Shown: positions 1,861 to 60,495 of the stretch, piece by piece
Layout of the letters: each line of letters begins with the position of its first letter
How positions within the stretch are numbered: position 1 is the first letter of the stretch
Assembly (NCBI RefSeq): GCF_018977255.1
Contig: NW_024704742.1
Span: 123,382,001 to 123,446,000 of the forward strand
Direction of reading: 5' to 3'
DNA from: Callorhinchus milii
Taxonomy: Eukaryota
Length of the DNA: 64,000 nucleotides
The notes under the pieces: generated by a model
Seen by the model: the letters and a program-made list of their open reading frames with translations, nothing else
What the model was told of the DNA's origin: nothing
Database searches by the model: none
Made by a program: the position numbers and the translations under genes

Positions 1861-1924
1861 ATGCCAGCAATAATACTGGTAATACTGTCGACATGCTTTC
1901 AGCTCAGTGTGTGTCATGAGGGGG
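1861..1924 (+). CDS. Gene A signal-peptide exon ([21 protein letters not shown])
   Basis: Acceptor tttcag at 1841-1846, ATG at 1861, hydrophobic leader, donor gtaagt at 1925; 64 coding nt, phase 1. Confidence 0.75.
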
Positions 1925-4900
1925 GTAAGTACAATTTCAATGAAATGTGACACTTCTGACCTTGTAAGCATCCTTACTTTGTAAACAAATGCCTGCGGAT
2001 AGTAAAATATAAATTCAGTATTATCCTAGTTTCTGGTGAGATGGTACATTATGCTAAAATTTGAATTTGTTTTAACAGTAATTACATTTGTGCTAGAAAG
2101 TTAAGAAGCAAGATTTTCCGTTTCATCAGGACAACAGAAGAATTGAACATGTTTGAGAGAATAGACTAGAACAATAATACTTATCCAACAGTATTCGTCC
2201 AGAACCATATTCGGCCATTTGGCTCATCGTGCCTGTCATGTGATTTCTGCTCTAATCAGATTTCCTGCTGATGGCAGCCTGACTTAACATAACATGTAGG
2301 AGCAGGTGTAGGCCATTCGGCCCTTCGAGCCTGCCCCGCCCTTCAATCATGGCTGATCTTCTAATCTAACTCCAGCTAACACCATAACCCTGCCTTATCC
2401 CCATATCCCTTAATCCCTTTTGCAATAAGAATTATCGGCAGGATTTGGAAGCGCAGACCAGTCACTGGGGGCAGGGAGTCATCCCATGCAGCTCCGGTTA
2501 AACCTGCAAGACAAAGCCCTAATGGGTAGGGTGATCCTAGCTGGACAAGCAGCAGGAAAGCTTGCCAGACAGTGCTATCAATGGCAAGCTATTTGGTTTT
2601 AGCTGGTTAGACTCCAGCAGCACCCCAACGCGCATTCTGAGATCCCCAACCCTTGGTTCTTGCCAACTTGCGCCTCATTCTTTTCGGAATTAGGTAAGTA
2701 GGATGTGTCCCTCAATGGAGAGAGTGCACATTCCCCTCCAACAATCTACCTCTGGGATTTCCATGTGTAGGTGGGATGCATAAAACTCTCAGTTTGGTCT
2801 GGATACTCTTACGCATGGTGATGGGTTTCCGCATGTGTCAGATACCCAGCTGACCAAAAAAAATCCTAGCTCTTTCTCTTAACCTTTATATATCTGTAGT
2901 CTTTAAGTGTGTATTGATTATATTTAATTGATTTTAAGTCATATCCTGATCTCTGAAGTATTTTTTAATTAAAAAAAACACAATATAGTTACTTTCCGGA
3001 ATTAGGTCATGGTGTATTCCTCCAGGGAATGCACCCTGACCTAGTTCCGGAAAGTAATCTATATTGCCCATTTCAAACACAGAGAAGTTCCATGTGTAGG
3101 GGTCCTATATATGTAGAAGTCACCTGTCGCACCCACTCTCCAACCTTCTCTGCCCCCCACCCCCAACTCGGGTGCAAAACCTGGACTGTCCAGCACCTTT
3201 GGCTGTCCTCCTGACGTAATATGCGCTATATAAATGTAAATTTGCATTGTATTGTTGTATTGTAACTTTCTGTCTGGTTTGGACACTCTTAACCATGGTG
3301 ATGATGAGTTTACGCATGTATCAGACGTCGACTAATGAAACAAAAATGAATGAACACTATATTTCCCTTTTAAATTACGTAATTGATATTCTCCTTTACA
3401 ACAACAACAACTTGCATTTATATAACTGGGGCATTCACATGGGCTAGCGTGTCAGAGTGCTTAAATTTCCTTGTGTAAGTAACATACATATGTAGAACTC
3501 ACCCCCTTTGTCCACCAACCCCCTCGGCCCCCATCCCACCCACAACTCGGTGCAAATCCTGGATCTTTGCACATCCTTCCTTTTTTTTAAATGAGTTCAG
3601 AAATACTGGCCTCAACCATCTTCCTGGTATCCTGCCAGTCACTACTTATCTTCTGGTAGAGAAATACTTCCTGGTAGCTGTGCTGAAATTTCCCTTTACA
3701 ATCCTAAACCTCTGGCCTCTTGTTCTGCTGTCTTGGTGTATCCAAAAGAATTGGTTTATGTTTACCTTCTCAATCACATTTAAAACCTTATATGCCTCTA
3801 TAAGCCCCCCCTGAAAAGCTGTTCCTTTTCAAGGCCGAAGAGCCCTAGCTTATCTAATGATTTATTCATAGTTCATTCCTCTAACACTGAGAATTATGCT
3901 TATTGCTCTCCTTCACACTGTCACCAAGGCCTGAGCAACAAACTTAAGTCATGCTACCCTGAACTATATGCAGAATTTTAGGTACTGATTGACCAGGGTA
4001 CTGTGTTCAACTGATTTGGTGACATAGCCTAGCATTTGGTTGTGTTGTTTCCTGCTCCGTCACACTGTTTTGATTTGCGGAAGTTACTAATACCCCTAGA
4101 TCTATTTCAGCTTACATTGGCAAGTTCTATTTCACCTATGAAGTACATTTTCTCCTATTTCACTTCCTATGTGTTACAACACTCACCAATTCAGCAACCA
4201 ATGCACATACAATACAATTTACATCTATATTGGACCTTTTGGGTTTGAAACCCCCCTCACGGAGGCCACGCCACCCGGCTACACCTCCCACCACATCCCC
4301 CGCCCCAACCGCCGTGGCGGTGGTGTTGCCCTTATCTCAAGGACACCACTTGCCCTATCCCCCTACTCCACTGGCTCTTTCCCCTCCTTTGAGCACCTCA
4401 CCCTCTCCCACCCCTCATTCCTCTCCCTTAAAATCCTCCTCCTCTACCGGCCCCCTAAAACCTCTCCCACCTTCATCTCTGACATTTCAACACTCCTCAC
4501 ATCTCTTTGCCTCTGCTCCGATCGCCTCATCATCCTGGGCGACTTTAACCTACACTTCACCCCCTCCTGCTCCATCTCCACAGACTTCTCTTCCCTGCTC
4601 TCCTCACTCAACCTCTCCTTACACATAAACTCCCCCACTCACAGTCACGGCCACCCACTCGATTTGGTGATCACCCGGGGCCTCAGTGTCTCGGATGTCA
4701 CTATTACCGACAAGGCCATCTCTGACCACTACTTCATCTCCTTCACCACCTCCACCCCCCTCCCCACCTCCACCAGACCCACCACCATCTTCTACCGCCC
4801 TTGGAAGAAGTTACCCCCACAATCCCTAACCGATGCCTTGGAGTCCTCTGAACTCCTCTCCCTCTGGCCTTCAACCCTCACCGACCCCTCTTCTCCTCTC

Positions 4901-7900
4901 TCCCTCCTCCACAATACCCTCTCCTCCACACTCGATACTCTTGCCCCCATCACTTCCCGCACTGTCTCCTACTCCCGCTCCTCCCCCTGGTACACCACCC
5001 ACCTCCGCTCACTGAAAAGCCAGGTGCGGGCTGCTGAACGCACCTGTGTCAAATCTGGCCTAACGGTCCACCGACAAATCTGGCTGGACCTCCTCAAAAT
5101 TTACCGCTCCACTCTAGCCTCGGCCAAGTCGTCCTTCTACTCCAGGATAATCCTGGAGGCGAAGAACAACCCCAGGCTACTGTTTTCCACCACAACCCGA
5201 CTCCTCCGTCCCCCCCGCCACCCCGCGCAGGTCATCTCCTCCAACCTTCACTGCGAGGAGATGCTGGATTTCCTTGAATCCAAGATCAAGGGAATCCGCT
5301 CCGCGGTCACTTCCCCTCCAACTTCCACCCACCACCCACCCCTTCCCTCCCACACTCCGACTCCTACCCATCCTCCCCTACACACCTTCGTACCCGTTTC
5401 CCCACCCTCTGTCACTGAACTCATCCTATCCCTAAAACCAACCACCTGCTCCCTTGACCCCATCCCCACTCCACTCCTTATCTCCCAGCTCCACTTTCTT
5501 GCCCCACATATCACTGACATCATCAACCTGTCCCTCTCCTCTGGCTCTGTCCCCATTCCATTAAAAACTGCCATCATCACGCCCACCCTGAAAAAACCCT
5601 CCCTTGATGCGTCGCAGCTATCAAGCTACCGGCCCATCTCCAACCTCCCCTTTCTCTCCAAGGTCTTGGAAAGAGTTGTCGCCTCCCAACTGCGCTCTTT
5701 CCTTTCCACCCATTCTCTTTTCGAACCCCTTCAGTCAGGTTTCCGTGCTGCCCATAGCACAGAAACTGCCCTGGTCAAGGTCACCAATGATATCCTGACC
5801 ATCTGTGACCAGGGCTCCCTCTGTCTCCTCGTCCTCCTCGACCTATCGGCAGCATTCGATACGGTCGACCACGCTATCCTACTCCACCGCTTGTCCTCCC
5901 ACCTCAACCTTCAAGGCACTGTCCTTGAATGGTTTAGGTCGTACCTTTCTCACCGTCTTCACTTTGTCTCGACGAATGGCTTCTCCTCCACCCCCCGCAC
6001 TGTCTCATGTGGTGTCCCTCAGGGCTCTGTCCTCGGTCCCCTCCTCTTCACCCTCTATATGCTCCCCCTTGGTGACATCATCCGCAGACATGGAGTTAAC
6101 TTCCACATGTATGCGGATGACACCCAACTCTACCTTTCCTCCTCTACTCTCAACTCCACGACCACCGATGTCCTGACAGCTGCCTGTCCGACATCGAGTC
6201 CTGGACGAGAGACAACTTTCTTCAGCTCAACGTGCGAAAAACCGAGGCCCTCCTGATTGGCTCACGTCAGCGCCTCCGCACCTCAGGCGCTGACACCATC
6301 AGCATCCAAGGCTGCACTCTCCACCTCTCAAAGCCAGTCAGGAACCTCGGCGTTTTGTTCGACCCTGAGCTGTCCTTTCTCCCTCACATCCGCACCACAA
6401 CTGGCACCGCCTTCCATCACCTCCGGAACATCGCCAGACTACGGCACTACCTCACCCCTCACGCTGCTGAAACCCTGGTTCACGCCTTTGTCACCTCAAG
6501 GCTGGACTATGGGAACTCTCTCCTCGCCGGCCTTCCCGCCACCTCCCTCCACAAGCTGCAGGTCATTCAGAACTCTGCAGCTCGTGTACTGTCCCGCACC
6601 AGGCTTCGGGACCACATCACTCCCACCCTCGCTCGCCTCCACTGGCTCCCCATCCCCCAGAGGATTGATTTCAAGATCCTCATCCTCACCTACAAGGCCA
6701 TTCACGGCCTTGCTCCCTCCTACCTCTCCAACCTACTATCCCCCTACCTACCTGCCCGTACCCTCCGTTCCTCTGGCTCCGGTCTGCTCCACGTCCCCCG
6801 CCCCAACCGCCCTACCATCGGTGGTCGGGCCTTCAGCCTCTCAGCCCCGAGGCTCTGGAACTCCATCCCCCAGTGCCTTCGCCTTGCTTCCTCCCTTTCC
6901 TCCTTCAAGGCCGGTCTCAAAACCTTTCTCTTTGACCGTGCCTTCAGCTCCCCTCTCGACTCTCTTCCCCCTCCTCGCTCCCTCCCTTCCCTCCCCTCAC
7001 CCTGACCATTTCCCCCCTCCTCTCTCCCTCCCTTCCCTCCCCTCACCCTGACCATTTCCCCCCTCCTCGCTCCCTCCCTTCCCTCCCCTCACCCTGACCA
7101 TTTCCCCCCTCCTCTCTCCCTCCCTTCCTCCCCTCACCCTGACCATTTCCCCCTGCTCGGGTCCTGACCCAACTGTGCAGCGCCTTGGGACGTCCTCCTG
7201 ACGTGAAAGGCGCTTCATAAATGGAATCTTGTTGTTGTTGAAACACTGATTGTCTTGGACCTTGTGACGCCCTCTCGACGTGAAAGGCACTGTACAAATG
7301 TAATTTTGTTGTTGTTTTACATTGGGAGAACATCCCAAAGGATTTTACACTGCTGGCTGAACCCCTGAGATGATGGAGTAGGAGCCGAGGGGGTGGGGAG
7401 GGGGAATAATCTTTCCCTATTCCCCCCTCTCAAAAACCCTTCATAATTTTAAATACTTATTCGATCTCCTCAGGGAGCTTGGAATTAGGGAGTTTGTTTT
7501 TGTATTACTTTCGAACAAAGCACAACAGCTGCAATGTTTTGTGCTCCCTCCCGGGCCTGGCTTGAGTCCAGGGACAGCTTTTTTTTAATTGATGCTCTAC
7601 TTTTAATGAAAACGCAGACACTGGAATATTTCTATTCGACTCGGAACTTAAAATATCACCATTTCATCTCTGTTCTGTCGAAGGTTTAGTTGCTTCAGTG
7701 CAGCCATTGTTTGCAGCCATTGTGTCTGGACAATAAGTACCGGCTGGGACTGAAAGGTGGTGTTGAGTGTTGCAACACTCGCTCTCAGGGTCAAAACAAA
7801 CAGAAACAAACCCACTCTTTTGAATGATTCATCTTTTATACGTTATTAATTCGGTAAATGGGGGTGAGCAGGCTTAACCTCGCTCACCAATATAAAACTA

Positions 7901-10900
7901 AATCTTCTGTACACGAACTTTCCCTGCTCTCCTAAAGGTGTCCTCCTACTCGGGTGTAGCTCTAGGCGCATCCTCGAGTATCGTGCCCAAGTGGCCATTA
8001 TAACAACACAAGCTTGTATTTATATATGCGGGTAGCATCTCAGAGCGCTTAAGAGCGGTGTGGTTTGACACTGAGCTGAGAAGGGAGGGGAGGTGACTGA
8101 AGGTACGGGCGAAGAGGAAAATCTGTGATTTGAAGACGGGTAAAGCGGGGGCAAGACAGAGGGTTTGAGGCAGGGAGTTCCAGAGATTCGGGGCACAGTG
8201 GCCAAAAACACAGCTGCCGTTACTTTATTATTATATTATAAATTATATCTTTCTGTTTTTCTACACATGAGTGTTGAATCATCACGTCTTTTTATCTCCA
8301 GTGCCACCTGAGAAACCCACCAATTTGTCCTGCATCACATATTACGATAGAAACATGACCTGTTCCTGGATTGTGGAAAGACACACACAAACTAAGCTTA
8401 AGCTGTCGTGAGTATCCAGTTTATTACTTCTATATGAAATCAAACAAGTAACCTAATGTTATCAGAACTTGTGGCCTGAATACGTACTATGCCATCTCAG
8501 GCTCATTTCCTTTCTGATATGCCCTGGCCATGATACATGAGGCAAGGATAAATGAGTTAGGAAGCTGCTGGGGTACTTTGCATTGATTTACACAGTACAG
8601 CACCGAAATAGGCTATTTAGCTCAACTAAACCTTGCCAAGTTTATTACGCCACTTGACCTTTCATCTCTCCTCATGCCCTCTGACTACCCTACTCCTATA
8701 CCCCTCTATTACCATCTCCCTCACGTAGGAACATAGGAATTGCTAGACAAAAAAGACCATGGTCCATTTAGTTCGCTGTCTACTATCCGGGTAGTTGCAT
8801 CCTACAATAATGGAGATAATAATAATAGCTGTTGATAGCAATTAATCCTGTATCAAACACACACATGCACACTTATTCAGGTGGAAATGACCATGTACTC
8901 ATGCACAGTTGTTTTTTTGTGGATCGATTCAGTAGAACCCAAACAGCAGTCAATTGCCCTGCCCGATAAGGCCACATAATGATCCAGAAACCAAGTTTAT
9001 TGTGGTGTTTAAGTAAAAGTAGGAATGGAACCAAGAAAGTGCAGTCTCACAGAGGTGGGGAAGTGATGGGGGAGGGTAGAATGATTTGAAGACAGCAGAG
9101 AGATTGAGATGGATGAGGAGGTACAGGGAGCTCTCAGCAGAGAAAGAGAATACTTATTTTGTGACTTTAGTAAAATGCTCACTCTCTCCCCTGAGGGACG
9201 CACTCTGCTTACCTAAAAAGACAAAGGTCAGTACGAGCAAAGGCTTGGAAACCCCAGAGTGCATAGGTGGGTTACTGCTGGAGTTTACCCAACTAAAACC
9301 ACATAACTTGACATTGCAGGCATTGTCTGTCTAATGTCCCAGCACTTGATCAACTAGAACCTCTCTAGGTTTAGGGGTTGGCCTGGGGAGTCAGCAGGAG
9401 ACAAATGGGAAGAATCGTTGACCTCACTGATCTGTCTGTCCCTCCAAGTCCAGCTGACAAGTACAGACCTACCTGCATTTTGCTTTCAATAAAGAATAGA
9501 TGTAGTTTTCATTGAATGAGATGCCACTGTTACCATAAATTAATCTGCATTTTGTTTTACTTTCCATTTTTTTCTGCGTTTCAGTATTTCTTCAGGACAT
9601 GTACAAGTCTGCAAACCAGAGCATTTCAACAATTTCTGCACAATCTTTTACCCAAATATTCACTACTATGTTGAGTATACTATTTGGGTGGAGGCAGAAA
9701 ATAGTTTGGGAAAAATTCTATCAGATTTCTTATTACTGGATGCAATGGACAAAGGTGATTATGTTACTTTTCACAATATGGTTTATTACCTTATAAAAAA
9801 CTGATAACTAATAAAAGTAGTGTTTAGTATGTTGTGATCATTTTCATGTTAAAAATAAATGAATGCAAATATATGATGGCACAGCAGAGAGCCTGATATC
9901 CTCTTTAACAGGGACCAGCCCCAGTGTAGATATCAGATCTCTATGTTTTTATATGTGTGTGTGTGTTTGTGCGCATGTCTCCTTCATCTCTCTAACCATT
10001 CCTCATAGCTCATGGCCCTAACACTGTAGATTATCCTTATTGGTCTCCTCCTTGACAGCCCCCATACAATGTGGTAACCATCTAAGTGCAATACTTCAAG
10101 TATAACGATTGGCCATGTGGCTGAGACATTGGAGGGCAATGCACACCTATGTGACTGTATCCCAGCAAAGATCAGTATTTTCTGAGGGGGATAAGGGATG
10201 TCTCACCAGTCTCCCCAGATCAACCTTTTACAAAGTCCAATTAATTGAAAACTACACTGCCCATATCTTCACTCTTAGCAAACCCAGGACCTCCAGGCCC
10301 ACCCATTATTGGGCTCCATTAGCTCCCTATCACCGAATGGTTCATTTTCAAAATCCTCACACATGCTTCATGCCCTGATACCTCCCAACCTCTCCAACTT
10401 GCTCACAGCCACTCTACCCATCCCATTTGCTCAACTGGCTCAGGTCTTTTGCATGTCCTTCAACCCCTCTGACGCTCCACCATCAGCAGCCTTGCCTTAA
10501 CCACAACACTCCAAGCCTCTCGAACTCTCTGCCTCAATCCCTCCAACTTGTTCCCTATTGACCCATCTTCAGATCACACTTGTAGACTTTCGTCTTTGAC
10601 CGTGCCTTCAGCCAGCTTCCCTTTCTCCTCGCTCAGCATCAAACTACACACTGTTCAGTACTCCAAACGTTACCCCACATGAAGGCACAATATGAATACA
10701 ACTTGTTGTTGTTGGGATAAACTTGTAACAAGAAATAAAATTGTTGTGTTAAGCAATAAGGACTGTAATAGTTTAACATAATTATGTACAAAATAGATGC
10801 TAAAACAACAATGATCCTAACATCTTGTATAGCACATTTCACGTATATATAATAATATATTCACTTTTGTATTTTAGTAAAAACTGAACCCCCGGAGATT

Positions 10901-31579: not shown

Positions 31580-31634
31580 AATCAATCAATCAATCAATCA
31601 ATCAGTCAGTCAGTCAGTCAGGTCTCTCTCTCTC
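31580..31634. repeat. Compound microsatellite (ATCA)n(GTCA)n(TC)n
   Basis: Read directly from the sequence. Confidence 0.85.
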
Positions 31635-37600: not shown

Positions 37601-40030
37601 CACAATGACTCCCTAGCCATGAGGTTAAGCACACTCCGCAACTGCTGCTTTCAATGGTTTTCAAGAGTCCAGGATATCTCCCATTCCTAATTTTCCCTCT
37701 CTCTCCACAGAGAAGCACAGCCTAGCTCCATGGCACAAGGCAAAAACTAGAACATCACTTGTGGGCAAATGTACATTGAGCCTGTATCCCGGTGCACCTC
37801 TGCGCAAATATGTTGGTACAACACAATCCAGTGTATATATTGCCCTGTCAAGCTTGGTATGTGGAACAGAAAAATGCATTGAAGACAAGTACCACAGTAA
37901 TAAAATTCTCCCTCTTATCAGAGTAGTTTTATTGTCACGTGTACAACTGGATGAATGCAGTGTAGCTTATTGAGAAATAACTGTTGAGATATTAATATCT
38001 ACAGTTTTACTTACCGAACAAAATTGTATTGAAGAATATTGTTGAGCTGTTTTTGCCACCCTTCACTGTAGATGCCATTACGAGCACTGTGTACATAGTA
38101 TTTTTCTGCAGAGATCTCAGAGTATATTCCCGAAAACTTGAGTTCACTGTTACAGCTGGAAGGCAGTAGAATTGCATTTAGAAAGAGAGGAAACAGATTT
38201 GCTAGTCACTCTGCTTTTTAACCCCAATTTATAAGCTTCAGACACTGAAATGGACACTTAGGTGAGGTAGTGGAGGTGACTGTGGAAATAACCTCAGCAA
38301 ATGTCAGGGCCGCAGGAGAGGGAAAAACATTTTAATATAATAATGATGATAACAATAATAATAATAATAGCATCCCATATGCATATAGAAGTGCCTCATA
38401 AAAACATAAAGTGAATGACCAAATGTCCTATACATCGAGAGAAATTTGCTTCTCTGTTTGAATACTGTCACGAGATCTTCAATGTTTACCTTAGTCCAGT
38501 GGTGACCAACACATGGCCCACGGGCCGGAAGTGGCCCATGGGGCCATTAAGAAATAGCCCGCCAAACATTTGCACTAGTCTACGTTAGTCGGATTGAGTT
38601 CAATGTTTTGTTTCTAGTTTTTTTCTTGATTGGATATTTCTTGATTTTTGGTATAAATATTCAATTAAGACAATTTATTTTGTTTATTTATTTTGATCAA
38701 AACTGTGGGCCACCACTGCCTTAGACAAACCAGCACTCCATTGGGGATTTAATTCTGTGTTACCAGTGGCTCCTTTCATTTTGGCAAATGATATATGGAT
38801 CAATGTAATCTGCAACAAATTTGTTTCAGTAACACTGAGCAGGATATTCCTATGGAAGGTACTGCTCAACTATCTCCCTGTGATGCACACTCCATGTGAG
38901 TACTAAGAACACTAGCATCTGTAGTCAGTCACAGCACTGACACACATCTGTCACCTCATATTAGTTTTATTAATCCATCACAAAACACATGCCCTCTCAT
39001 TAACTGGATGCAATGATATGGTGCTTAACAATAACTTACAGTTTTCACTGTTATTGGATTTGTAAAAGATGGTGTAATTGGTGATGAATCCAAACTGACT
39101 GTCCAATGGGATTTCATCCCACTTGATTGTAGCTTCTTTTGCCTTCACATTCTGAAAGCGAACATGTGGACCTTCCTTTGGAGCTGAAACAAAAGTTCTA
39201 GTTTAATGTGCTGAAGATAATTTGTATTGTTATTGTATGGAGACCATTAACATGCGGGGGAGGGGTCTAAAATTTCCCCTGGGTGGAGAATGACTATTTA
39301 TGTAGCATTTTAGAGCATTCAGAATTTGGAAAAATTGTTGAATTCAGTCTTAACTTTGAGGCTAGTTTTATGTAGATCTTAAAAGATCTGTAGTTTTTAG
39401 AAGAAACGCAGCTTCAACAGAATTTACAGAAATGCAGCTTCAAAATTAAGCTTGTTATGTAAGAATTATTATTATCTGATATTATACTTAAACAGAGTAA
39501 ATCTAGACCAAGTTGGATGAAATGCTCTGAAACTCTAGCCCATATGAATTACTGTTGTTGAATTTTACCTCAAATTATTTTTTTCAAACATGCTAGTTTT
39601 TCAGAATAACTATTGTATCAGTGTCATAGATCAATTACTTAGCAGCGCAGAGTGAGGTGGTAAAACAGATCATTTAACAGTGGAAAATGATTAGCAGTGG
39701 AAATTGCTCCTCACTGAAATGATATTTCTTAATACACTAATTTCCACACTATTAATTCACAGGTACACACAGACAAACATTAATGCAAGAGTGCTCGACT
39801 GACAATTCTGAGAATTGCTGCACACTGCAAGTCATTAAACCCTGGTAAAAGTTAATTGAACAAATATCAACAGCTCCTTGATGGATTGCTGAATCCTTAG
39901 AACAAACGCATACACATACATACACACAAGTATTCATGAATTAAGACATTATTAACTTCATCTAGATACTGAAGTGAATGTTTCCTTTAAATTTTGTTTT
40001 ATAGATAATATTAAAGTATGCCACAGGATG

Positions 40031-40085
<55 letters not shown>

Positions 40086-49000: not shown

Positions 49001-52000
49001 TGAGAGCCCCAATTATTTTTTTTTGAAGGAATTATTAACCCCAGAAAATTATTCCGACAATCAAATAACAACGGATTCCTACTTTCTGCTAGGTAAATAG
49101 CATGTGGAGTAAGGAAACTTGCCTAACATTTCACCCTATCTGGGAATCAAACCCAGGTCCTCTCCCTTATGAGGCAAGTGCTCTAACCAATACCACAGGA
49201 CTCCACAAATTGCAGGACGCACAAGAACCGTCCTCCTGTAAACATTCTGTGAATTTATACATTGTTGAAAGTCTCAGTACGTACTGGCTCCAGAAGCTGT
49301 TCCCGTTTCCTCTGAACTCCACTCACTCCAGTAGAATTGTCTTTTACTGCCAATGCAGCGGACAGTAACTGTATAGTTGCTCAAGGGTTTGAGATTCTTA
49401 AGCATTAATGAAGTCCCTGATGAATTTCCATCTACTGCTACCTAAAAGAAATGTAATGGTATGTATCATTACTGCACATTATACAAATAATTATCAATAG
49501 CAACTTGACAGCGACATTTGTAATATAACTGCTTTTACAATTGGTTTCCACGTTATGATTGAAACAGTAATTGATTTGTTGTTATACACACGGGATAAAA
49601 TTCCACATGTTTGCAGATGACGCACAAATCTACTTTGCCTCCTCCAGTACTAATTTCAGGTCCACCATTGTTCTATCAGCTTGCCTGGCAGACATTGGGG
49701 CCTGGATGAGTGTAAACTTCCTGCAGCTGAATGTGGAGAAGACAGAAGCCATACTCTGGTTCCCATCAATGTCTTCACGCCTGCAGATCTAAACCCCTCA
49801 ACCTCACCGAACCAGTGAGTTCGACCCCCAGCTGTCCTTCCTCCCCCCACTTTCGGTCCGTAATCAGGACCGCCTTCTTCCACCTCCGCTACATTCCCCG
49901 CCTCAGACCTTACCCCAAATGCAGCTGAAATCTCCCACCTGGATTACTCCAACGCACTCCTCGCCGGGCTCCTCAGCTCCATCAATCATAAGATCCAGCT
50001 CAATCAGAACTCTGCTGCCCACATACTGACCCAGACTAAACTCTGTACCCACATCTCACCAGCTCTGGCCAGGCTCCACTGGCTCCCCATCACCAAACGG
50101 ATCGACTTCAAGATCCTCACACTCGTGTTCAATCCATTCACTCCCTGGCACCCCTCTACCTCGCCAACCTCCTCACTCCCCAATCCACCACCTGGCGCCT
50201 CCGCTCGACTGGCACCGGCCTGCTCCTGCTCGTCCCTCACACCCTCCGCTTGACCATTGGAAGTCGTGCATTCAGCCACTGCACCCCGAAACTCTGGAAC
50301 ACTCTCCCTCAATCCCCCCCTTGCCCCATCTCTCCCCTTTTTCAAGTCTTTCCTCTTCGACCATGCTTACGGCTACCTCCCCCTTGTGGTACGATCCCTA
50401 ATGTACATCTTCTTATCCATTGTTGCCTCAACATCAAACCATTGTAGAATAATTTGCTCTGTTTACTGTTCCATAATAATAGTTACAGTCTTTTTAAGAT
50501 CAAAGCTAAAGAGCTGATTCTGTTAAATTTTACTCTCATGCTTAAAGTTCCCGCTTTCATGAATACAACAAAATAGATGCAACGTGGCTCAGTTGGCAGC
50601 ACTCTCCCTTCTGAACCAGAAGATTGGTGGAGTGGAGGGGGGATTTTAAGCTCCATATGAGTACTTGAGCTCACAGTATAGGCTGACAATCTAGTGCAGT
50701 ATTGAGGACAAGCTGGATTGCCAAAGGTTCTGTCCTTCAGAATAAGACATTAAGCTGAGGTCCCTTCTGCCTGTCCTCAGGTGAATGTTAAAGTTTCCAT
50801 CACATAATTTAAAAAGGAAAGGTGTTTCTCCCCTGACTAACAATCCTTCGGATGAATTGACAATTACCCAATGGATGTGTTAATACTACCAATACTACTT
50901 ACTACTACTATCACTAGGACTAGTAGTAGTAGTAGTAAGTAATAGTAGTAGCTACACAAGATTAGGGCACATGGAATTAACGGCAATATAATAGCATGGA
51001 TCGAAGAGTGGCTAACGGGAAGAAAACAGAGAGTAAGGATAAACAGGTCCTTCTCAGATTGGCAGGATGTGACTAGTGGAGTGCCACAAGGATCAGTGCT
51101 TGGGCCTCAACTATTTACAATCTATATCAATGATCTGGAAGAAGGCATAGAACTTAAAATATCTAAATTTGCGGATGATACTAAGCTAGGTGAGAGCGTA
51201 AGCTCTGAGGATGACACAAAAAGATTGCAAAGGGATATATATAGGCTAGGTGAGTGGGCAAGAAGGTGGCAGATGGAATATAATGTGGGGAAGTGTGAAG
51301 TTATTCCCCTAGGTAGTAAAAACAGAAAAGCAGATTATTTTCTAAAGGGGGAGAGACCAGATAATGTTAGTGTTCAGAGGGATTTGGGTGTCCTTGTACA
51401 CCAGTCACAAAAAGTTAGTATACAGGTACAGCAAGCAACTAGGAAGGCTAATGCCATGTTGGCTTTTATTGCAAAAGGGTTAGAATACAAGAGTAGGGAA
51501 GTCTTGCTACAGCGGTATAGGGCCTTGGTGAGACCGCACCTAGAATATTGTGTGCAGTTTTGGTCTCCTTATTTAACAAAGGATATGCTCGCCTTAGAGG
51601 GGGTGCAGTGTAGATTCACTAGGTTAGTTCATGGGATGAGGGGGTTGACCTGTGAGGATAGGTTGAGTAAACTAGGCCAATATTCTCTAGAATATGGAAG
51701 AATTAAGGGTGATCTTACAGAAACATATAAGATTCTCATGGGGCTTGACAGAGAAGACAGTGTGAGACTATTTCCCCTGGTAGGAGAATCTCGAATTAGG
51801 GGTCACAGTTTTAAGATTAAGGATCAGTCCTTTCAACCAGAGTTGAGGAAACATTTCTTCACTCAGAGGGTAGTGAATTTATGAAATGCTCTACCCCATA
51901 AGGCTGTAGATGCTCAGACCTGGAACATATTCAAGACTGAGATTGATAGATTTCTAAAGGATAAAGGGATTAAGGGATATGGGGAGAAGGCGGGCAGATG

Positions 52001-55000
52001 GAGTTAAGTTAGAAGATCAGCCATGATCTTAGTGAATGGCGGGGCAGGTTCGAGGGGCCGAATGGCCTACTCCTGCTCCTAATTCCTATGTTCCTATGTT
52101 ACTAGGACTTCTCAAAGCGCTTCGCAGGATTTACTGTGAAATTGAGTGGCTGTGTATTTGTGGGTAAACGCAGCAGGCCTGGAATAAGTGACCAATTTTA
52201 TTTAGGGGATTATCAGCCAGGACATTGGGAGAAACTCATCTTCTCTTTTCAAACAGTGCCATGGGATCTTTAACATCGACCTAGACAGGCATAAGATTGG
52301 GGGATATTTTTGTGTGAACTGCACTTCAATGAACCCAAGCATACTTTAACAGTTCAGTTTGAAATTGATTCATATTCTAGCATACCTGAGTCCAGGATTC
52401 TGTATCAACCATTCGATATTTAATGTTATATTTGAGAGGAAAATTAACTGGCGTTGAACTTCTAGGTGTCTGCCATGTTATCAACAAGCATCTCTTTTGA
52501 TCCTTACAAGGTTGAACAGCTACATTCTTCGGAGATGCAGGTTTCACTAGAATAAAGAAGATACCAATCATCAATCAACTAACATACAGGCACTTTCTCA
52601 TGGGAAGACAATTAAATATCATACCCACAATAGACCTAATACATAATTCTATGTTATAGGTGGACTTTCAGCTTTATGGAAGATAACACAGCTCTGCCTC
52701 ATAGAATATCACTTTGCCTTCTTTTACTGGAGAGCATGAAAAGAAGAAAAGGGAATAACACAGAATTGACTGGTCAACCCTCATCCCACAGTTTAGTCAG
52801 CCATGAATAGAGGTGCAGACGTTCATCTACAAATTCACAGTCACTACACTTTACAGTATATTCTGTGACCCACTTTGAGATATCCTCCTGATGCAAAAGG
52901 TGTTATATGAAATGCAAGGATTACTATTATTAAAACAACAGCCTGCATGATAGTGTTTCCTTCATGAAGGGAAGGGTCTTGGAGGGCTTTACAGTAGCGT
53001 ATCCTGACACCGAGCATCTTTACTCACGTAAATCACTTTGGTATACCAGCCATCTCCGCTCCCTTAAAGCCCAGGCACGTTCCGCTGAGCGTACCTGGCT
53101 TAAATCAAACCTATCTGTCTGCCTGGACATGTCAAATCCTACTGCTCCGCCCTCGCCTCCACTAAATCATCGTTCTACTCCAAGACAATCTTGGAGGCTA
53201 AGGATAACCCCAGGCTCCTCTTCCCCATCCTCCAACCAGCTCATCTACCCATCCTCACCTCAAATGCCAACTGCGAGGCGATGCTGAACTTCCTCAAATC
53301 CAAAGTCGAGGGAATCCGCTCAACTGCCTCTGCCACTGCAACTGCTACCCCCTGCCCATCTCCTCCTCCCACCCCAGCCCCTACCCACCCCTCCCTCCAC
53401 ACCTTTCAACCGTCTCCCTCTCCTCTCTCACCACCACCATAACCTGCATGAAACCCACCACCTGCTCCCTTAATCCTATCCCTACCCTAACATCGTAAAC
53501 CTCTCCCTGCTCTCTGGTACTGTTCCCACTCCTTCAAAAACCGCTGTCATCACTCCTATCCTTAAAAACTCTCCCTGGACCCTTCTCTACTCCCTAACTA
53601 CTGCCCCATCTCCAACCTCCCCTTCCTCTCCAAGGTCCTGGAACAAGTTGTTGCTTCTCAGCTTCTCCTTCCTTTCGCGCCACTCCCTTCTCAAACCTCT
53701 CCAATCGGGTTTCCGTGCACAGAAACAGCTCTGATCAAAGTGACAAATGACATTCTGTCCCTCTGCCTCCTCATCCTCTTTGACCTCTCTGCTGCTTTCG
53801 ACACTGTCAACCATTCTATCCTCATCCACCGCCTCTCCTCCCACCTCAACGGCGCTGTCCTTGATTGGTTCGGATCGTATCTCTCACACCGCCTGCACCT
53901 CATCTCCTCAAATGGCTTCTCCTCTAGTCCCAAGACCATCTCATGAGCCGTTTCTCAGGGCTCTGTCCTTGGTCCCCTCCTCTTCAATATCTATATGCTC
54001 CCTCTTGGTGACATCATCCGCAGACATGATAGATGTCAACTTCCACATGTATGCGGATGACACCCAACTGCATCTCTCTGCCTCCACCCTTGACTCCAGG
54101 ACCACTGCTGTGCTGACAGAATGTCTGTCAGACATCAAGTCCTGGATGAGAGCTTCAGTTGAATGTCAACAAGACCGAATAATGTAATTCCTCACCTCAG
54201 GCACTGACAACATCACCATCCATGGTTGCACGCTCCATCTTGGTAAGCCAGTCCAGAACCTTGGGTCCTTTTTTGATCCTCAACTATCCTTTCTACCCCA
54301 CATCTGTGCCATGACTCACTCTGCCTTCCCCCACCTCCGCAACGTCGCCCGACTCTGGCACTGTCTCACACCGCAGGCCGCCAAAACCCTCATACACGCC
54401 TTCATTACATCGAGGCTCAACTATGTGAACTCATTGCTTGTCGGCCTCCCCAACTCCTCCCTCCACAGGCTGCAGATCATCCAGAACTCTGCAGCCCGTG
54501 TCCTCTTCCGCAAGGCTCCGTGACCCTATCACCCCTATCCTTGCCCAACTCCACTGGCTTCCCATCACACAGTTCAAGATCCTGGTCCTCAGCTTCAAAG
54601 CCCTCCATGATCTTGCTCCCCCCTACCTCTCTGACCTCCTAACCCCCTACCACCCTGTTCGCTCCCTCCACTCAGTGGGCTCTGGCCTGCTTCACGTCCC
54701 CCGCCTTGCTCACCCCACTATCGGCGGGCGGACCTTCCACCACTCTGCCCCCACCCTCTGGAACTCCACCCCGCAGTCTCTCTGCCTCGCCCCCTCCCTC
54801 GCCACCTTCAAGACCCACCTCAAGACCCTCCTCTTCGACCGTGCTTTCGATCTCCTTGCTTCCCCCCCATCCTCCACCCTCCTCCACCCCAACCCTCAGC
54901 TCGGGTCCGTAACTCTGTCTGTCCAGCGCCGTGGGATGTCCTCCCAACGTGAAAGGCGCTATACAAATGTCATTTTGTTGTTGTTGTTGTTTATAAATAT

Positions 55001-58000
55001 TTACATTAAGTGGCAAGTCTGCCAAGTCACAAGCTGAAGGAGAGGAAGGCCTCAAATAGCAACCAAACTATATAAAGAAGGTTTTATATTCATCAAGCTT
55101 TGCGAGAACCTCAACCATCCATTACAGTTATGTTTATTGCCATAAAGATAGAATTTTCAGCAAAAGTTAAACCCTCTTTGTATGTATTTCGTGCTGTTAC
55201 AAGGCAACCTTTACATTGCTAGCTATCATCTGGGTTCAATATGTCAGAACCCACATTTATAAGGCAAGAAAAAAAATGGCCAACCTATTTAACTATTTAA
55301 AATAGTTGTTAAAAGAAGCAGAGGGGAGGTGACGAGAAATTGTTTCACACAGCGAGTTGTTCAGATCTTGAATTAATTGCCTGAAAGAGTGGTGGAAGCT
55401 GATTCGATAACAATGTTTAAGAGAGAAATAGATAATTATTTGGGGAGGACAAGTTTGCAGGGCTATAGGGAGAGAGCGGTGGAGTGGGAATGAATTGGAT
55501 AGCTCTTTTCAAAGAGCCGGCACAGACATGATGGGCCGAATGGCCTCTTTCTATGCTGTATAATTCTATGATTTTATGAGAAGCCAACCTTTTGGCAAAA
55601 AACACTTACTACTCCCTGCCCATGTGCATTGGGGCAAGAAGTGCCTCTGACATCACTTCTTTTGCAAAGTGACATCAGAGGTACTTCCACCACATAACAC
55701 ATGTGCACAGAATGCAGAAAGTGCTTCCTGTGCATAGCAGAAAGTGAGCTCAGTGTGACCTGATAAACCAAAAGTTGGCTTTTTTAAAAAAAAGCATGGG
55801 AAGCCAGTGGCAGAAGCCAGAGGTACCATGCTTCCTGCCAGTGTGGGTTCACAGTTCGCTCACACTCGAAGCAAATCCATACTCAACCCATGTGCTTTAT
55901 AAGGGGGAAATCCTGTATCTGGATATTAGTCATGCAACACAAGATACATTCTAAATGATTTGTTTCCGGCATTTCTCCATTACATCTGAAGCTGTTAACA
56001 TTAGTTGTGAAGTAGACCATCTAATGTGTGGTTAATTTAACAGTTATTTGTATAAAATATTTATAATTACAAATATGTGAAACGTCCAGGTACAATGGAT
56101 CAGACTGAGCTTTGCCCAAAGCATTCTGAGCTGTTACGCTGATCATGAGTTGTCCTTTACTGTACAGATGTGGAAACATGAAAGAACATGAATTACTCTT
56201 CAAGGTATTGCAGGTGTAAGGTTTTCTCGTACTCCTGAAAAATAATGAAACAACCATTTACGTTGAGTTTATAACAACCCTTGTTTTTATTATAGTATCT
56301 ATGATGTCTCAAAGTGTTTCACAAAAATTATGTGATGGTACTTGTAGGTGAATATAGCAGCTAATTACACAAACAACCATGAAGGAAAGACGACTAAAGA
56401 AATTAGTCATGGCTGTGTGTGGATCATTCTGGTGTTCGTTGGCTGCTGCATTCACCTATAAATACACAAACACTCACTCAACAGTAATTCCTGTGAAATC
56501 TTCAACAACATGATAGTGAACCATCATCAAACCTGTTCAAGCAACCATATCCATTCAGCAACCAGCCCCTGTTTACAACCACGCTGGAACAGCCACACAT
56601 TACATACGCACACACTCCAATGATCTCTTATTCAAAGGCCACTCTTATATAAGGCCACTGTGGCCCCATCTGCTGAGTGGCTGTTAAAGACAGGTTTGAC
56701 TCTATATCAAATGCAAGGATTATAAACATTATATAAAATAATATATGGGATTGAAAATAGTATTTCATATACGTGTACATCAAACCAGCAAGACAATAAG
56801 TCAGGACAGGAGTCAAAATTGATTTGCATTCAATAATAATAATAATCCTTGCTTATGTGATATAATTTAATTATAATTAATTTAATTAACTAATGTGATA
56901 TAGAGCATTATCACGTCATTGAGAAGTCTTAAAGCACTTTGCAGAACATACTGTGAAGTGAATTGACCGTATATTTGTGGGCGAAACCCAGCGCCTTGGG
57001 ACGTCCTCCCGACGTGAAAGGCGCTCTATAAATGGAATCTTGTTGTTGTTGTTGTTGTAGCAGCCAGTTGCCATAGCAGTGTCCCACAAACAATCGTTGA
57101 TTGAATGACCCAATTTTTTTTAATGGATTATTAATCCCAGAAAGAAATTCGATCACCGATCGAATAACAACCTACTTACTGCTAGCTAAACAGAGGTGTA
57201 TGGAGTAAGGAAACTTGCCTAAGGTTTCGCCTCGCCGAGGAATTGAACCCAGGTCCACTCGCTTGCGAGGTGAGTGCTTTAACCGATAAGCTACAGGACT
57301 CCACAATGTATTTTTACTGTTTTGATGCAAAGTAATCTTTTTCTGAAACAGTGAGATTTCTGATACTTACAATTGTTTAGTTACTGTGAAATTCGTTTCT
57401 AAGTCCGTTTCTCGCCCACGATCCCAGAAACAAGTAAAATTCTTCCTAAAGTATGCAATGCAGGAAACATTTTTCGGTTTGTCAGGTGGAGCTGGGGGAA
57501 AAATAGAAAGGCTGAATGAAAGAATATTCCACACGTATCAGTAAATAAAACATTTCAAAATTATATGGCAAAGGTAATTATGTGATGGTTATGAGGCCTT
57601 GATTGATGGTGGCAGTGTGTTCCTGTGTATTGTTTATTATTTGTATAATTTATATAGTTTATAGCTCTCACCCATTAACCATTCTTCATGTGGAAATGTG
57701 ATGCTGTCTCTGAGATGCTATCCTGCAGGAAAGGTGCTGTAAACTGCAAGTTGTTGTCAACAGCCTTTTCACCCATGGGCGAGAAGATATCACAGACTAA
57801 CCCAACTCTGTCCTCAGTGAATAGAAATAGATTTTATAGGCAAATAATCCATATGCAATATATCAGCACTTCAGGTTCACAGGGGCATTCTAACGGGCAT
57901 TGGCCTATGTCTTCCTTTTACAAAAATATATCCACCTGTTGGGTATTTGCAATATTTTCTGATTTTATTTGGGATTTCTAGCATTCCCAGTTTTCCATTT

Positions 58001-60495
58001 TAACTCCACATTTATAAAGTGACCACTTACATCCTGCTTTGACTATGAATATGTGAAGAGTGAGTAGTTTCCCTTTACTGTCAATCTCGCATTCCACTTC
58101 ACTTCTCGGCACATTAAAGTTTCTCAAGGACAGAAGGGAAACGCTTGCATTGATGGCTCGATATTGCTCCTGTGATGCTCGAACACCATTTACTATCCAG
58201 AATATGTGGCTTGCATTTGCTTCAAACTTATCAAAGCACTTTTCCCTCAAGCTGCACGACATTGTGAGATTTGAGCCGAGTTGCACTTCGGATGGAGAGT
58301 CGAAATCGTGACAAGTCATTCCCAATCCAACTGTCAATTTGTACATGAAAAGAACAAACATCAACATGAGGTAAGGCAGTGCAAGCAGGAATGAGATATC
58401 TACAACACAGACACAAGGGCTTTCAGTGATATAATAATAATCCTTTCATTTGATATTTGGGCAAGTTTCCTTACTCCACACAGAGCCTAATAATAATCCC
58501 TCCAAAAACCAAAAACAATAATAAATTGGTCATTTTCAATCTACGACTGTTTGTGGGACATTGCTGTGCGCAATTGGCTGCCGCGTTCGCCCACAAAAAG
58601 TCAATTCACTTTACAGTGTGTTCTGTGAAGCGCTTTGGGATGTCCTCCCGACGTGAAAAGCGCTATATCAAATGCAAGGATTATTATTATTATTATTATT
58701 ATTATACAGCATATTCTGTGAAGCGTTTTGAGACGTCTTGAAGAGGTGAAAAGCGCTATATTAAATGCAAGGATTATTATTATTATTATTATTATTATTA
58801 TACAGTTAACCTCTGCTGTGCTGGCTCCGGCCCCTCCACTCCATCATCAGCGGCTGTGCTTCCAACCACTATGCCCCGAAACTTTGGAACTCTCTCCCTC
58901 AATCCATCCGCCTTGCCCCTCCTTCCCCATTTTCAGATCACATCTCTTCAACCATGCTACCGCCTCCCCTGGCTGGGCATCAGGCTCCAGATAAGATTGG
59001 TCATTCACTTCATAGCTCCAAGCGCACTGGGATGCTACCCTACGTGAGGGGTGGTATATAAATGCATGGTGTTGTTATTGTAGCTGTTTGCGAGATATTG
59101 CTCTGTGCAAATTAGCTCCATATTTACTTATAAATATAATCACTACCCTTTATAGTAAATCTTGTGAAATGCATTGAAATGTTCGATGACATGATAAGAA
59201 GCTGAATAGGAATATGACTGGATTGAGATTATCCAAACATAGGATCTGAATTGCAGGTAGACAGAGGAGACTTTTACCAATCAGTTTGAACTGGATATGG
59301 ACCAATATGAACATAGGAAAAGTCAGAGCCAGAGTCACTGATTTCTCCAAGGAATCAATCCACTGATGAGTTCCAAGCTGAAGTTTCGTGAGCATGTGGC
59401 ACACAATAACAATTTGCATTTATCCAGTGCTCTTCATGCAGGATACTGCCTCAGACACAACAGATTCTCTGGACAAAATAATAATCCTATAATAATAATC
59501 CTTGCATTTGATATAGCGCTTTTCACGTCGGGAGGACATCCCAAAGCGCTTCACAGAACACACTGTAAAGTCAATTGACTGTATATTTGTGGGCGAACGC
59601 GGCAGCCAATTGCGCACAGCAATGTCCCACAAACAGTCGTAGATTGAAAATGACCAATTTATTATTGTTTTGTTTTTTTGGAGGGATTATTATTAGGCGT
59701 GTGGAGTAAGGAAACTTGCCCAAGGTTTCGCCCTGCCTGGAATTGAACTCAGGTCTCTCGCTTGCAAAGCGAGTGCTCTAACCACTGAGCTACAGGACTC
59801 CACAAAATACTACCTACTTTACAGGAAATGTTGCCAAGGCAATGTATTTAATACATAGAAAAGGGGACCTAAAACTACAGACACACACTAAACATTAAAG
59901 ATAAAATCACAAACACAAAGAGACAGAAGCCTGACCAGCAGAAAACAGAGATACAGACTGAGATAACATACACAACAACATACAAACTGAGATAAGAAAT
60001 TTCAACTGTCAGTGAGTTTCCCAACTTCTGGTTGTTTGTAGTGTGCACATCCCAATCTCTGCTGTTCAGGAAATGCATGGATAATTTATAAATAATTGTA
60101 AACACATGCAGTTAGTCAAAAAACACAGAAGAGAATGAAAGATCAACACATACAACTATACAATTTGCATTTATATAGCACTTTCACTCAGGATCCCATC
60201 TTAAAAGTGCTGTATAGAACTGGGTTGGATGTTGAGCAAGGAAAAAGGTGGAGGGCAGATGGCCATAGACATATGCACACAAACCAATAGAAGCAGAAAC
60301 ATGCTAAGTTAAAAGCATGTTGAGATATGTTACATATTCATAGATGAAAGATACTCACATTATCATTAACATTATCATAACTGCATATGACATGCATCAT
60401 ATAAATGTAATATTTATTTGACTTACCTTCACAACCATATGTATGTAGCAAAAACATCACCCAGGCCCAAGCAGAGATGATGTTTTCTGTGGTAA
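33955..60495 (-). CDS. Gene B: gp130(IL6ST)/IL31RA-like class I cytokine receptor with Ig D1, spliced CDS of at least 15 exons, ~890 aa; 5' start unresolved
   Basis: Exons in transcript order: 60495-60427, 58330-58031, 57491-57371, 56234-56071, 52546-52386, 49441-49285, 47988-47906, 46395-46179, 44795-44607, 43445-43344, 39183-39040, 38155-38015, 37199-37115, 35202-35121, 34620-33955. All GT-AG with consistent phases. Contains Ig, CBM with WSEWS, three [15 protein letters not shown] and YKSQ. Confidence 0.92.
35121..35202 (-). CDS. Gene B Box1 exon ([11 protein letters not shown])
   Basis: Identical to gp130 Box1 IWPNVPDP; 82 nt. Confidence 0.94.
36654..36970 (-). mobile_element. tRNA-derived SINE, short form
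   Basis: Reverse complement of the SINE family. Confidence 0.85.
37115..37199 (-). CDS. Gene B transmembrane exon ([25 protein letters not shown])
   Basis: Hydrophobic run with AIVVP as in gp130, followed by KK. Confidence 0.92.
38015..38155 (-). CDS. Gene B FNIII-3 exon b ([21 protein letters not shown])
   Basis: 141 nt; family motifs. Confidence 0.92.
38497..38718. mobile_element. hAT (Charlie-like) MITE, 222 bp
   Basis: TIRs CAGTGGTGACCAACA and rc CAGTGGTGGCCCACA (13/15 match); 8-bp TSD ccttagtc/ccttagac. Confidence 0.8.
39040..39183 (-). CDS. Gene B FNIII-3 exon a (PKEGP...WDEIP...[10 protein letters not shown])
   Basis: Family motifs and splice sites. Confidence 0.92.
40034..40366 (-). 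mobile_element. tRNA-derived SINE with expanded (TTA)n tail
   Basis: Reverse complement of the SINE; (TAA)n run at 40034-40085. Confidence 0.85.
43344..43445 (-). CDS. Gene B FNIII-2 exon b ([16 protein letters not shown]...AYLEQ)
   Basis: 102 nt; CYxIT..GPG..AYL. Confidence 0.92.
44607..44795 (-). CDS. Gene B FNIII-2 exon a (LLEW...FVIEWCLA...HWQ)
   Basis: VIEWC motif; gtgagt donor. Confidence 0.9.
46179..46395 (-). CDS. Gene B FNIII-1 exon b (EANGIILGY...AYNSAGDSP)
   Basis: Family motifs and splice sites. Confidence 0.92.
47442..47764 (-). mobile_element. tRNA-derived SINE, short subfamily
   Basis: Near-identical to the copies at 12629 and 59489. Confidence 0.9.
47906..47988 (-). CDS. 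Gene B FNIII-1 exon a ([11 protein letters not shown]...RNVHLLLK)
   Basis: 83 nt, phase 1 to 0, homologous to gene A 13053-13132. Confidence 0.87.
48843..49204 (-). mobile_element. tRNA-derived SINE, long subfamily
   Basis: Reverse complement, includes the internal segment. Confidence 0.85.
49285..49441 (-). CDS. Gene B WSXWS exon ([13 protein letters not shown]...YWSEWS)
   Basis: WSEWS; cttttag acceptor and gtacgt donor. Confidence 0.94.
49585..50370 (+). mobile_element. Degraded L2 fragment
   Basis: [22 protein letters not shown] and LHWLP remnants. Confidence 0.8.
50953..52100 (+). mobile_element. CR1-clade LINE 3' portion (RT) with (TTCCTATG)n tail
   Basis: ORF 51069-51884 has [37 protein letters not shown] and TQRVV; 3' ggggccgaatggcctactcctgctcct tail. 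Confidence 0.93.
52386..52546 (-). CDS. Gene B CBM exon (KPASPKNV...LKYNIKYR...W)
   Basis: LKYNIxYR as in gp130; splice sites present. Confidence 0.92.
53030..54990 (+). mobile_element. Degraded L2 LINE (RT plus 3' tail)
   Basis: [18 protein letters not shown] and LHWLP in shifting frames; (TTG)n tail. Confidence 0.9.
55305..55575 (+). mobile_element. CR1 3' fragment
   Basis: ttcacacagcgagttg...gatgggccgaatggcct...ttctatgatt tail. Confidence 0.7.
56071..56234 (-). CDS. Gene B CBM exon (C...SCSFMFP...VTAQNALGK)
   Basis: Second Cys pair, VxAxNALG; splice sites present. Confidence 0.92.
56895..57303 (-). mobile_element. tRNA-derived SINE (long) with a nested L2 tail
   Basis: SINE reverse complement interrupted at ~56990-57058 by a plus-strand L2 tail. 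Confidence 0.85.
57371..57491 (-). CDS. Gene B CBM exon ([35 protein letters not shown])
   Basis: C-x9-CxW and GRETxLxTNFT; 121 nt. Confidence 0.93.
58031..58330 (-). CDS. Gene B Ig-like D1 exon ([17 protein letters not shown]...ANASHIFW...EQY..IN..C)
   Basis: Aligns by eye to gp130 D1 VQLHSNFTAVCVLKEKC...NANYIVW...EQYTIIN; 300 nt, phase 1-1. Confidence 0.92.
58457..58800 (+). mobile_element. 5'-truncated SINE with a second tandem tail
   Basis: Starts at ttgggcaagtttcc; two successive tail plus (TTA)n units. Confidence 0.85.
59489..59802 (-). mobile_element. tRNA-derived SINE, short subfamily
   Basis: Near-identical to the copy at 47442. Confidence 0.9.
60427..60495 (-). CDS. Gene B putative signal-peptide exon (..[20 protein letters not shown])
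   Basis: Strong acceptor ttttctctccttcag and donor gtaagt, hydrophobic, ends in phase 1. No convincing upstream ATG was found. Confidence 0.6.

Follow-up and report, generated by a model that had tools for sequence, protein, structure and literature searches.

A probable gp130 decoy gene of cartilaginous fish at the IL6ST-IL31RA locus

We have analyzed a stretch of 64,000 nucleotides from the elephant shark Callorhinchus milii (contig NW_024704742.1, positions 123,382,001 to 123,446,000, hereafter the window) that carries two convergent genes, referred to as A (1861..29706, + strand) and B (33955..60495, - strand). Both code for gp130-type class I cytokine receptors, with a cytokine-binding module (Cys, WSXWS), three more FN3 domains and one transmembrane helix. 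B is the expected gene in its ancestral state and A, judging from its sequence, is a probable gp130 decoy of cartilaginous fish. Gene A is very probably a duplicate of gp130 (IL6ST), and the extra copy suggests a built-in decoy that may damp IL-6-type signalling. In the reading that we favor, with a probability of about 0.55, A would be a membrane decoy and scavenger filling the gp130 slot of IL-6-family complexes, by analogy with mammalian gp130.

Structure and ancestry of the two genes

The two genes lie tail to tail, A on the + and B on the - strand, with 4,248 bp between their stop codons. Every intron is GT-AG and the reading frames are open in both models. Intron phases agree exon for exon and exons of 102, 141 and 82 nt are common to both, so that the gene models bear out what a previous sequence-only reading had described (a convergent pair with matching phases, these shared exon sizes and stops about 4.2 kb apart). 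The remaining 11 exon pairs are unequal in length and the proteins only 38% identical which, together with the shared phases, indicates an old family and no recent duplication.

Gene A has 14 exons, with the ATG at 1861 and a stop ending at 29706, and codes for 651 amino acids (exons 1-7 at 1861-1924, 8302-8407, 9585-9754, 10878-11035, 11653-11812, 13053-13132 and 14224-14434; exons 8-14 at 19563-19757, 20367-20468, 21090-21242, 24679-24819, 27390-27480, 27989-28070 and 29464-29706; all +). Residues 111-651 are 100% identical to P0008 = XP_007890430.2, the RefSeq model of this species, which begins at exon 3. The signal-peptide exon (1861..1924, +) joins D2 directly, phase 1 to phase 1. In Callorhinchus this junction rests on the gene model (contig mapping covered 19500-39300), and it is present in the models of seven of nine shark species, the other two beginning further in. 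No Ig D1 exon for A was found in the window by a six-frame search with a D1 profile from 26 receptors. The exon of B alone was matched (E~1e-23), the second-best match (E=0.07) was on the wrong strand, and intron 1 of A is free of N. Neither was PF06328 detected in any of the six shark A proteins scanned. Because the B-type Ig exon is phase 1-1, it could be lost in frame. The presence of Ig D1 in B and its absence from A, also noticed previously, are thereby confirmed, PF06328 being found in B.

The rest of the ectodomain has been kept. The cytokine-binding module D2-D3 of A (8302..11812, +) has four Cys, a WSEWS, a Tyr at the position of the gp130 F191 anchor and a Val at V252, and exon 2 carries a 15-nt in-frame deletion relative to the exon of B. 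In gp130, F191 is the site-2 anchor for OSM (PMC11557873), and human IL-31Ralpha has no such anchor residue (PMC13587731). Tyr or Phe occupies this position in 6/6 aligned A proteins and in 0/4 of B. Between Callorhinchus and three sharks, identity is 57-63% for D2-D3 of A (gp130 55-56%) and 60-65% for D4-D6 (gp130 56-65%). For the tail the figures are 23-42% vs. 72-75% in gp130.

It is in the tail, behind the transmembrane exon (27390..27480, +), that A has changed most. The box1 exon (27989..28070, +) is degenerate, without Trp and Pro at gp130 652/653 and without the interbox Trp, with PxP kept. The last exon (29464..29706, +) is collinear with the gp130 tail down to the dileucine motif, has no tyrosine and stops six codons after LLL, so that the whole tail of Callorhinchus A counts 110 residues and zero tyrosines. 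Box1 Trp652, Pro653 and the interbox Trp are found in none of nine A proteins, vs. 12/12 shark gp130 and 11/11 B. The SHP2/SOCS3 tyrosine and the first YxxQ of gp130 are replaced, box2 is unrecognisable, and the tail ends before the three distal YxxQ. The gp130 distal tail was not found behind the stop of A or elsewhere in the window (best E=15). The dileucine internalisation motif, by contrast, is present in all nine A tails (with the upstream acidic residue in only two of them), and LLL plus EE make up five of the 14 invariant columns among 124. A gp130 tail profile outscored an IL31RA profile in 9/9 A tails, two of which exceed the best shuffle (9.9 bits), giving minor support to a gp130 origin. 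At the position of the box1 Trp-Pro we found Cys-Gln in 8/8 shark A tails and Val-Ser in Callorhinchus; this membrane-near Cys of the sharks may carry lipid.

The phylogeny was computed with IQ-TREE on 43 ectodomains, from D2 to the transmembrane segment (530 columns). A previous FastTree of 79 rows had left B unresolved, and the 43-row tree omits 36 of them. A forms, with four shark orthologues, the sister group of cartilaginous-fish gp130 (100/99), all of them inside the gp130 group (98/97). The sister group of bony-vertebrate IL31RA (93/91) consists of B with five orthologues. The approximately unbiased (AU) test rejected A with IL31RA (p=0.0002), B with gp130 without A (p=0.003) and A plus B plus shark gp130 (p=0.025). 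The placement of A outside all canonical gp130, i.e., an origin before the split from bony fish, was weakly rejected, at the borderline (p=0.044). When the ectodomain was split, A grouped with shark gp130 in both halves (91, 83) and B with IL31RA in the D2-D3 half only (92).

The tails agree with this assignment. The 251 residues of the B tail contain six tyrosines and a single YxxQ, as in IL31RA (gp130 has three to five), and the IL31RA profile outscores that of gp130 in 11/11 B tails. The motif NPYL is found in 9/11 B, 9/10 IL31RA and 0/24 gp130, and a C-terminal Y[IV][TA][LV] in 11/11, 7/10 and 0/24, respectively. Besides, PF06328 is above cut-off in 4/5 of the non-mammalian IL31RA-type proteins scanned and in neither of two from mammals. 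Non-mammalian IL31RA thus has an Ig domain and that of B is no argument against its being IL31RA. We conclude that B is probably IL31RA. The sequence-only reading had proposed either the ancestral IL31RA/IL6ST locus or an additional duplicate pair. What we find is that locus with an extra duplicate and with the roles swapped, B being IL31RA and A the gp130 copy. Its statement that B has a full signalling tail and A none holds for the tyrosines (six in B, none in A), except that the tail of B is of the IL31RA type and not that of gp130.

Orthologues of A were retrieved from 10 species: Callorhinchus, Heptranchias, two Scyliorhinus, two Chiloscyllium, Hemiscyllium, Stegostoma, Mustelus and, partially, Rhincodon. 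For six species of rays and skates, and for Heterodontus, Carcharodon, Cetorhinus and Pristiophorus, none was retrieved among the best 120 of 161 matches, which is weak evidence of loss as A may be unannotated there. As for expression, we mapped contigs of four runs (X1-X4), presumed to be RNA, as backed by their spliced joins, to 19500-39300. A was spliced in three of the four. In X2 a single contig of 2,988 nt links exon 8 to exon 14 of A with 569 nt in between, exactly exons 9-13. Its 1,101 nt upstream fit the Ig-less model, which needs 949 coding bases (an Ig-bearing one would need about 1,250). Contigs leave the genome at exon edges of both A and B in X1, X2 and X3, which all belong to one study; this shows co-occurrence at the level of the sample but not of the cell. 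X4 gave B contigs with no cover listed at coding positions of A; contigs show presence only and we have not used this as evidence.

Proposed function of gene A and its alternatives

We propose that A goes back to a gp130 duplication early in the history of cartilaginous fish and then became a membrane decoy, the Ig D1 exon having been lost in frame. In IL-6-family cytokines site 2 is the contact for gp130 D2-D3 and site 3 that for gp130 D1 or LIFR (PMC10105715), so that A should occupy site 2 only. The strong constraint on D2-D6 and the kept anchor suggest that, on cytokines of the IL-6, IL-11, LIF or CNTF type, it should sit in the place of gp130. From the known structures, a D1-less receptor could not serve site 3 and would make no gp130-type dimer with itself. 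Since A no longer has the box1 Trp-Pro, the interbox Trp, box2 or the tyrosines for SHP2/SOCS3 and STAT3, a single functional JAK would be present when it pairs with gp130 or LIFR. As regards human gp130, IL-6 signalling is blocked by W652A (10.1101/2025.10.10.681590), loss of the interbox Trp disrupts JAK1 binding, dominantly (PMC5394478), and stops after residue 641 are dominant negative, as is S789*, just behind the dileucine (PMC12288962). Internalisation of gp130 requires the dileucine and neither ligand nor JAK (PMC8204807). The dileucine kept in A would therefore allow it to travel with its cargo into endosomes, independently of JAK. The features of a sink are kept and those of a transducer lost, which is the reason for the decoy and scavenger reading. 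The earlier suggestion of an inhibitory member in the pair is in line with these losses, and A does look inhibitory. B, for its part, would be an independent signalling chain. A partnership or heterodimer of A and B has nothing to support it other than three samples in which both transcripts occur, and the natural activating counterpart of A is the canonical gp130 outside the window, not B.

Several observations weigh against this picture. PxP is retained in 5/9 A tails, and shark A tails carry one to three scattered tyrosines each, with a YxxQ in 2/9 that is near the membrane and not at the gp130 position. The nine tails stem from about three lineages and are not independent. The Trp-Pro of box1 is also missing from some unnamed fish receptors with tyrosine-rich tails (the interbox Trp is present in 10/11). 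JAK is still bound by gp130 W652A (10.1101/2025.10.10.681590), and IL-23R binds JAK2 without box motifs (PMC4945146). Among the human variants, all of which have D1, retention of the dileucine weakens the dominant-negative strength (PMC12288962). On the side of B, the support for its grouping with IL31RA (93/91) was not starred, and its D4-to-transmembrane half leans to gp130 (with A and shark gp130 at 52, inside the gp130 group at 91), for which gene conversion or slow rates may be responsible.

The most credible alternative, although we consider it unlikely, is that A is a helper chain like IL-12Rbeta1, still carrying a JAK and acting as the site-2 partner of a site-3 signalling chain (gp130, LIFR or B), so that one of the duplicated shark IL-6 would have a receptor to itself. 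The asymmetric heterodimer of the sequence-only reading falls under this alternative. The architecture is indeed that of IL-12Rbeta1, whose human tail is tyrosine-free and has a box1 Cys at the gp130 Trp position (PMC4945146), where the eight shark A proteins also have Cys. The retained PxP, the duplication of IL-6 in cartilaginous fish (PMC6238376) and the shared samples of A and B contigs could be taken in the same sense. However, IL-12Rbeta1 has all three box1 prolines, whereas A is without the first in 9/9 tails, without the third in 4/9 and without the interbox Trp in 9/9. Moreover, its juxtamembrane tail is poorly conserved under a well conserved ectodomain, and nothing ties A to B beyond the shared samples. 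It would be improbable, in turn, that all three genes are lineage-specific gp130 copies and B not IL31RA, which would leave the function of A as a separate question. Two lineage-specific duplications have been reported (PMC6238376, section 19), and both the D4-to-transmembrane tree and a gp130-like YTxx/YxxQ/QPLL stretch in B point that way. The AU test (p=0.025), the tail profiles and the distribution of NPYL speak against it. Besides, "IL-31" is absent from the main text of PMC6238376, and the accession of B is entered as IL31RA in Table S2 of PMC12284397. Quite improbable too is a non-signalling carrier or presenter that concentrates the cytokine, transports it by transcytosis or hands it to gp130, with a net effect other than inhibition. 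The dileucine of gp130, the best-kept part of the A tail, is also a basolateral sorting signal (PMC8204807), and the stalk D4-D6 of A is as conserved as that of gp130. Yet A at site 2 would keep gp130 off the same cytokine molecule, which favors competition over a carrier role.

Decay of A as a duplicate without selected function is highly improbable. It could be read from the failure to retrieve A (again among the best 120 of 161 matches) in rays, skates and four genera of sharks in which gp130 or B is present, from the RefSeq model beginning at exon 3 and from the deletion in exon 2. But the frame is open and the splice sites canonical in 14/14 exons, the ectodomain has been conserved like that of gp130 across the chimaera-shark split, and spliced contigs exist. 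Finally, the clean one-to-one orthology of A to IL31RA and B to IL6ST that had been implied from the sequence alone is practically excluded. The convergent orientation and the presence or absence of the Ig domain do match the mammalian pair, but both halves of this mapping are rejected (p=0.0002 and 0.003), a canonical gp130 with four YxxQ exists separately in the same species (P0033/P0295), and non-mammalian IL31RA has an Ig domain anyway.

We return therefore to the decoy reading of A, of which the fullest version is offered only tentatively, short of even odds. A would be a dedicated gene of cartilaginous fish, kept since before the chimaera-shark split, for a membrane-bound gp130 decoy. 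Docking on site 2 of IL-6-family cytokines, this decoy would block the receptor complexes and remove the cytokines through endocytosis. It would be an evolved counterpart of the human dominant-negative gp130 alleles and a mode of control that bony vertebrates lack, next to a B that represents the Ig-bearing ancestral state of IL31RA and for which signalling as a homodimer would be possible in principle.

Gene B, the locus and its introns

Gene B (33955..60495, -) is the probable IL31RA orthologue with Ig D1 and has 15 coding exons (exons 1-8 at 60495-60427, 58330-58031, 57491-57371, 56234-56071, 52546-52386, 49441-49285, 47988-47906 and 46395-46179; exons 9-15 at 44795-44607, 43445-43344, 39183-39040, 38155-38015, 37199-37115, 35202-35121 and 34620-33955; all -). 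The protein is 99.6% identical to P0012 and 100% to P0010 = XP_007890363.2. Position 60495 is a splice acceptor and not a start codon, and the upstream start exon was not found within the window. The Ig-like D1 exon (58031..58330, -) is 300 nt long and phase 1-1, and matches gp130 D1 (E=9e-10) and PF06328. The last exon (33955..34620, -) contains YTIF, YKSQ, QPLL, NPYLKS and YITL. The first Pro of PxP is Ala in 10/11 B proteins and in Callorhinchus gp130; B of the window has Pro (35202-35121, -). There are signs of short B isoforms (34593-34997 and 35121, -). An X4 contig passes from the last exon into intron 14, and P0013 (V9KDM6) reads through exon 14 into intron 14 and ends without the tyrosine-bearing tail. 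P0175 and P0211 (724-726 aa), which group with gecko IL31RA, seem to begin at D2, a hint that the Ig domain of IL31RA was lost once more outside mammals.

The space between the stops (29707..33954) is mostly taken up by the 3' untranslated regions of A and B, with contigs reaching 30586-30831 from A and 31637 from B and a gap of about 0.8-1 kb between them. These contigs break at repeats, and an antisense overlap is possible. The canonical gp130 is not within the 64 kb, being a third gene of this species outside the window, as the sequence-only reading had allowed for. Identifiers run consecutively as gp130, A, B in four genomes, those of Chiloscyllium punctatum (GCC26714, 26715 and 26716, respectively), C. 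plagiosum, Heptranchias and Callorhinchus. The locus is thus gp130 (IL6ST) - A - IL31RA (B), an order taken from accession numbering and not from DNA. As in mammals, a gene of the gp130 lineage lies tail to tail with IL31RA, but here it is A. The position of B beside IL6ST and near SLC38A9 comes likewise from identifier order, plus the published bamboo-shark coordinates, and not from DNA. In the latter species 176 kb separate IL31RA from IL6ST, the corresponding distance being 3.3 kb for gar and 8.7 kb for chicken (PMC12284397). The bamboo-shark IL31RA of that study is, by accession, the B orthologue. The accessions of A lie between it and IL6ST and are absent from the tables of that study, whose Table S2 enters the elephant-shark accession of B under both IL31RA and IL6ST. 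Two IL31RA genes adjoin IL6ST in gar, and likewise in reedfish (PMC12284397, Table S2/S3), hence three-gene clusters at this locus occur also in ray-finned fish. The single gar protein in our tree groups with sturgeon IL31RA and not with A.

In intron 7 of A we found a frameshifted and inverted relic of the transmembrane exon of canonical gp130 (18544..18627, -), with its donor intact and its acceptor lost. It scored 24.2 and 17.0 bits in a sliding search with shark gp130 profiles (best of the reversed-window control, 9.3) and resembles shark gp130 more than it does A or B. The relic points to further local copying of gp130. No more gp130 relics were found above control level in the window, the other non-exon matches scoring 10.8 bits or less against the control best of 9.3. 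Intron 1 of A contains a near-intact long interspersed nuclear element (LINE; 4142..7018, +), with endonuclease, reverse transcriptase and one frameshift. Being young, it does not explain the Ig loss that the A genes have in common. A 741-bp copy of its 3' end in intron 7 of A (17450-18190, +) is 98.9% identical, indicating a recently active family. Older copies (53039-54848, 15117-15711 and 49598-50346) are 65-74% identical. A family of short interspersed repeats has many intronic copies (21296-21671, 25924-26236, 36653-36970, 47437-47789, 59456-59806) and attracts very high contig depth in the mapped runs.

Comparison with known systems

Part of this was already known. It has been reported that gp130 is triplicated and IL-6 duplicated in cartilaginous fish (PMC6238376), and B appears as IL31RA in a published table (PMC12284397). 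The three copies of PMC6238376 are almost certainly gp130, A and B. The part of that paper available to us reads them as extra signalling diversity and makes no mention of a lost D1 or of lost signalling motifs. Neither an Ig-less, signal-dead gp130 of sharks nor a decoy reading turned up in the literature searched, a search that did not extend to most subscription papers, to figures or to the elephant shark genome paper. The "three gp130s" of sharks would then consist of a gp130, an IL31RA and a signal-dead copy. The selective losses of A (D1, box1 Trp-Pro, interbox Trp, tyrosines), with one tail motif kept, separate signalling from trafficking in gp130 and, if A is a decoy, it would be a natural and long-conserved example. 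The loss of the Ig domain of IL31RA is placed late, since shark, gar, lungfish, axolotl and bird have the domain and the two mammals scanned do not.

Among the known receptors, A is most like its parent gp130, with D2-D6, WSXWS, the site-2 anchor, the start of the transmembrane segment and a tail collinear down to the dileucine. It differs in having no D1, box1 Trp-Pro, interbox Trp, box2, SHP2/SOCS3 tyrosine or gp130 YxxQ, and its tails are of 100-111 residues vs. about 270. B shares with IL31RA the NPYL, the C-terminal Y[IV]T and the lack of the aromatic site-2 anchor of gp130, and probably also the clade and the locus. It has Ig D1, like the IL31RA of axolotl, rhea, lungfish and gar and unlike those of mole and echidna, and departs from IL31RA in keeping the gp130-like YxxQ and QPLL. 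Soluble gp130, IL-13Ralpha2, IL-1R2 and BAMBI have, as A does, kept the ligand-binding part and lost the signalling one. Soluble gp130 is a product of the gp130 gene itself and keeps D1; A, on the other hand, is a paralogue anchored in the membrane and equipped with an endocytosis motif. We know of no separate gp130 decoy gene in mammals, which use soluble gp130 and SOCS3 instead. IL-12Rbeta1 is, like A, an Ig-less tall receptor with a tyrosine-free tail, but belongs to another clade and has a full three-proline box1 that binds TYK2 (PMC4945146). The human dominant-negative IL6ST truncations of hyper-IgE syndrome, S789* above all, resemble A in being membrane-anchored and cut just behind the dileucine, and they inhibit IL-6 signalling (PMC12288962). 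They are disease alleles with D1 and, in S789*, also an intact box1 and one STAT3 site, whereas A is a separate, conserved gene that has none of these.

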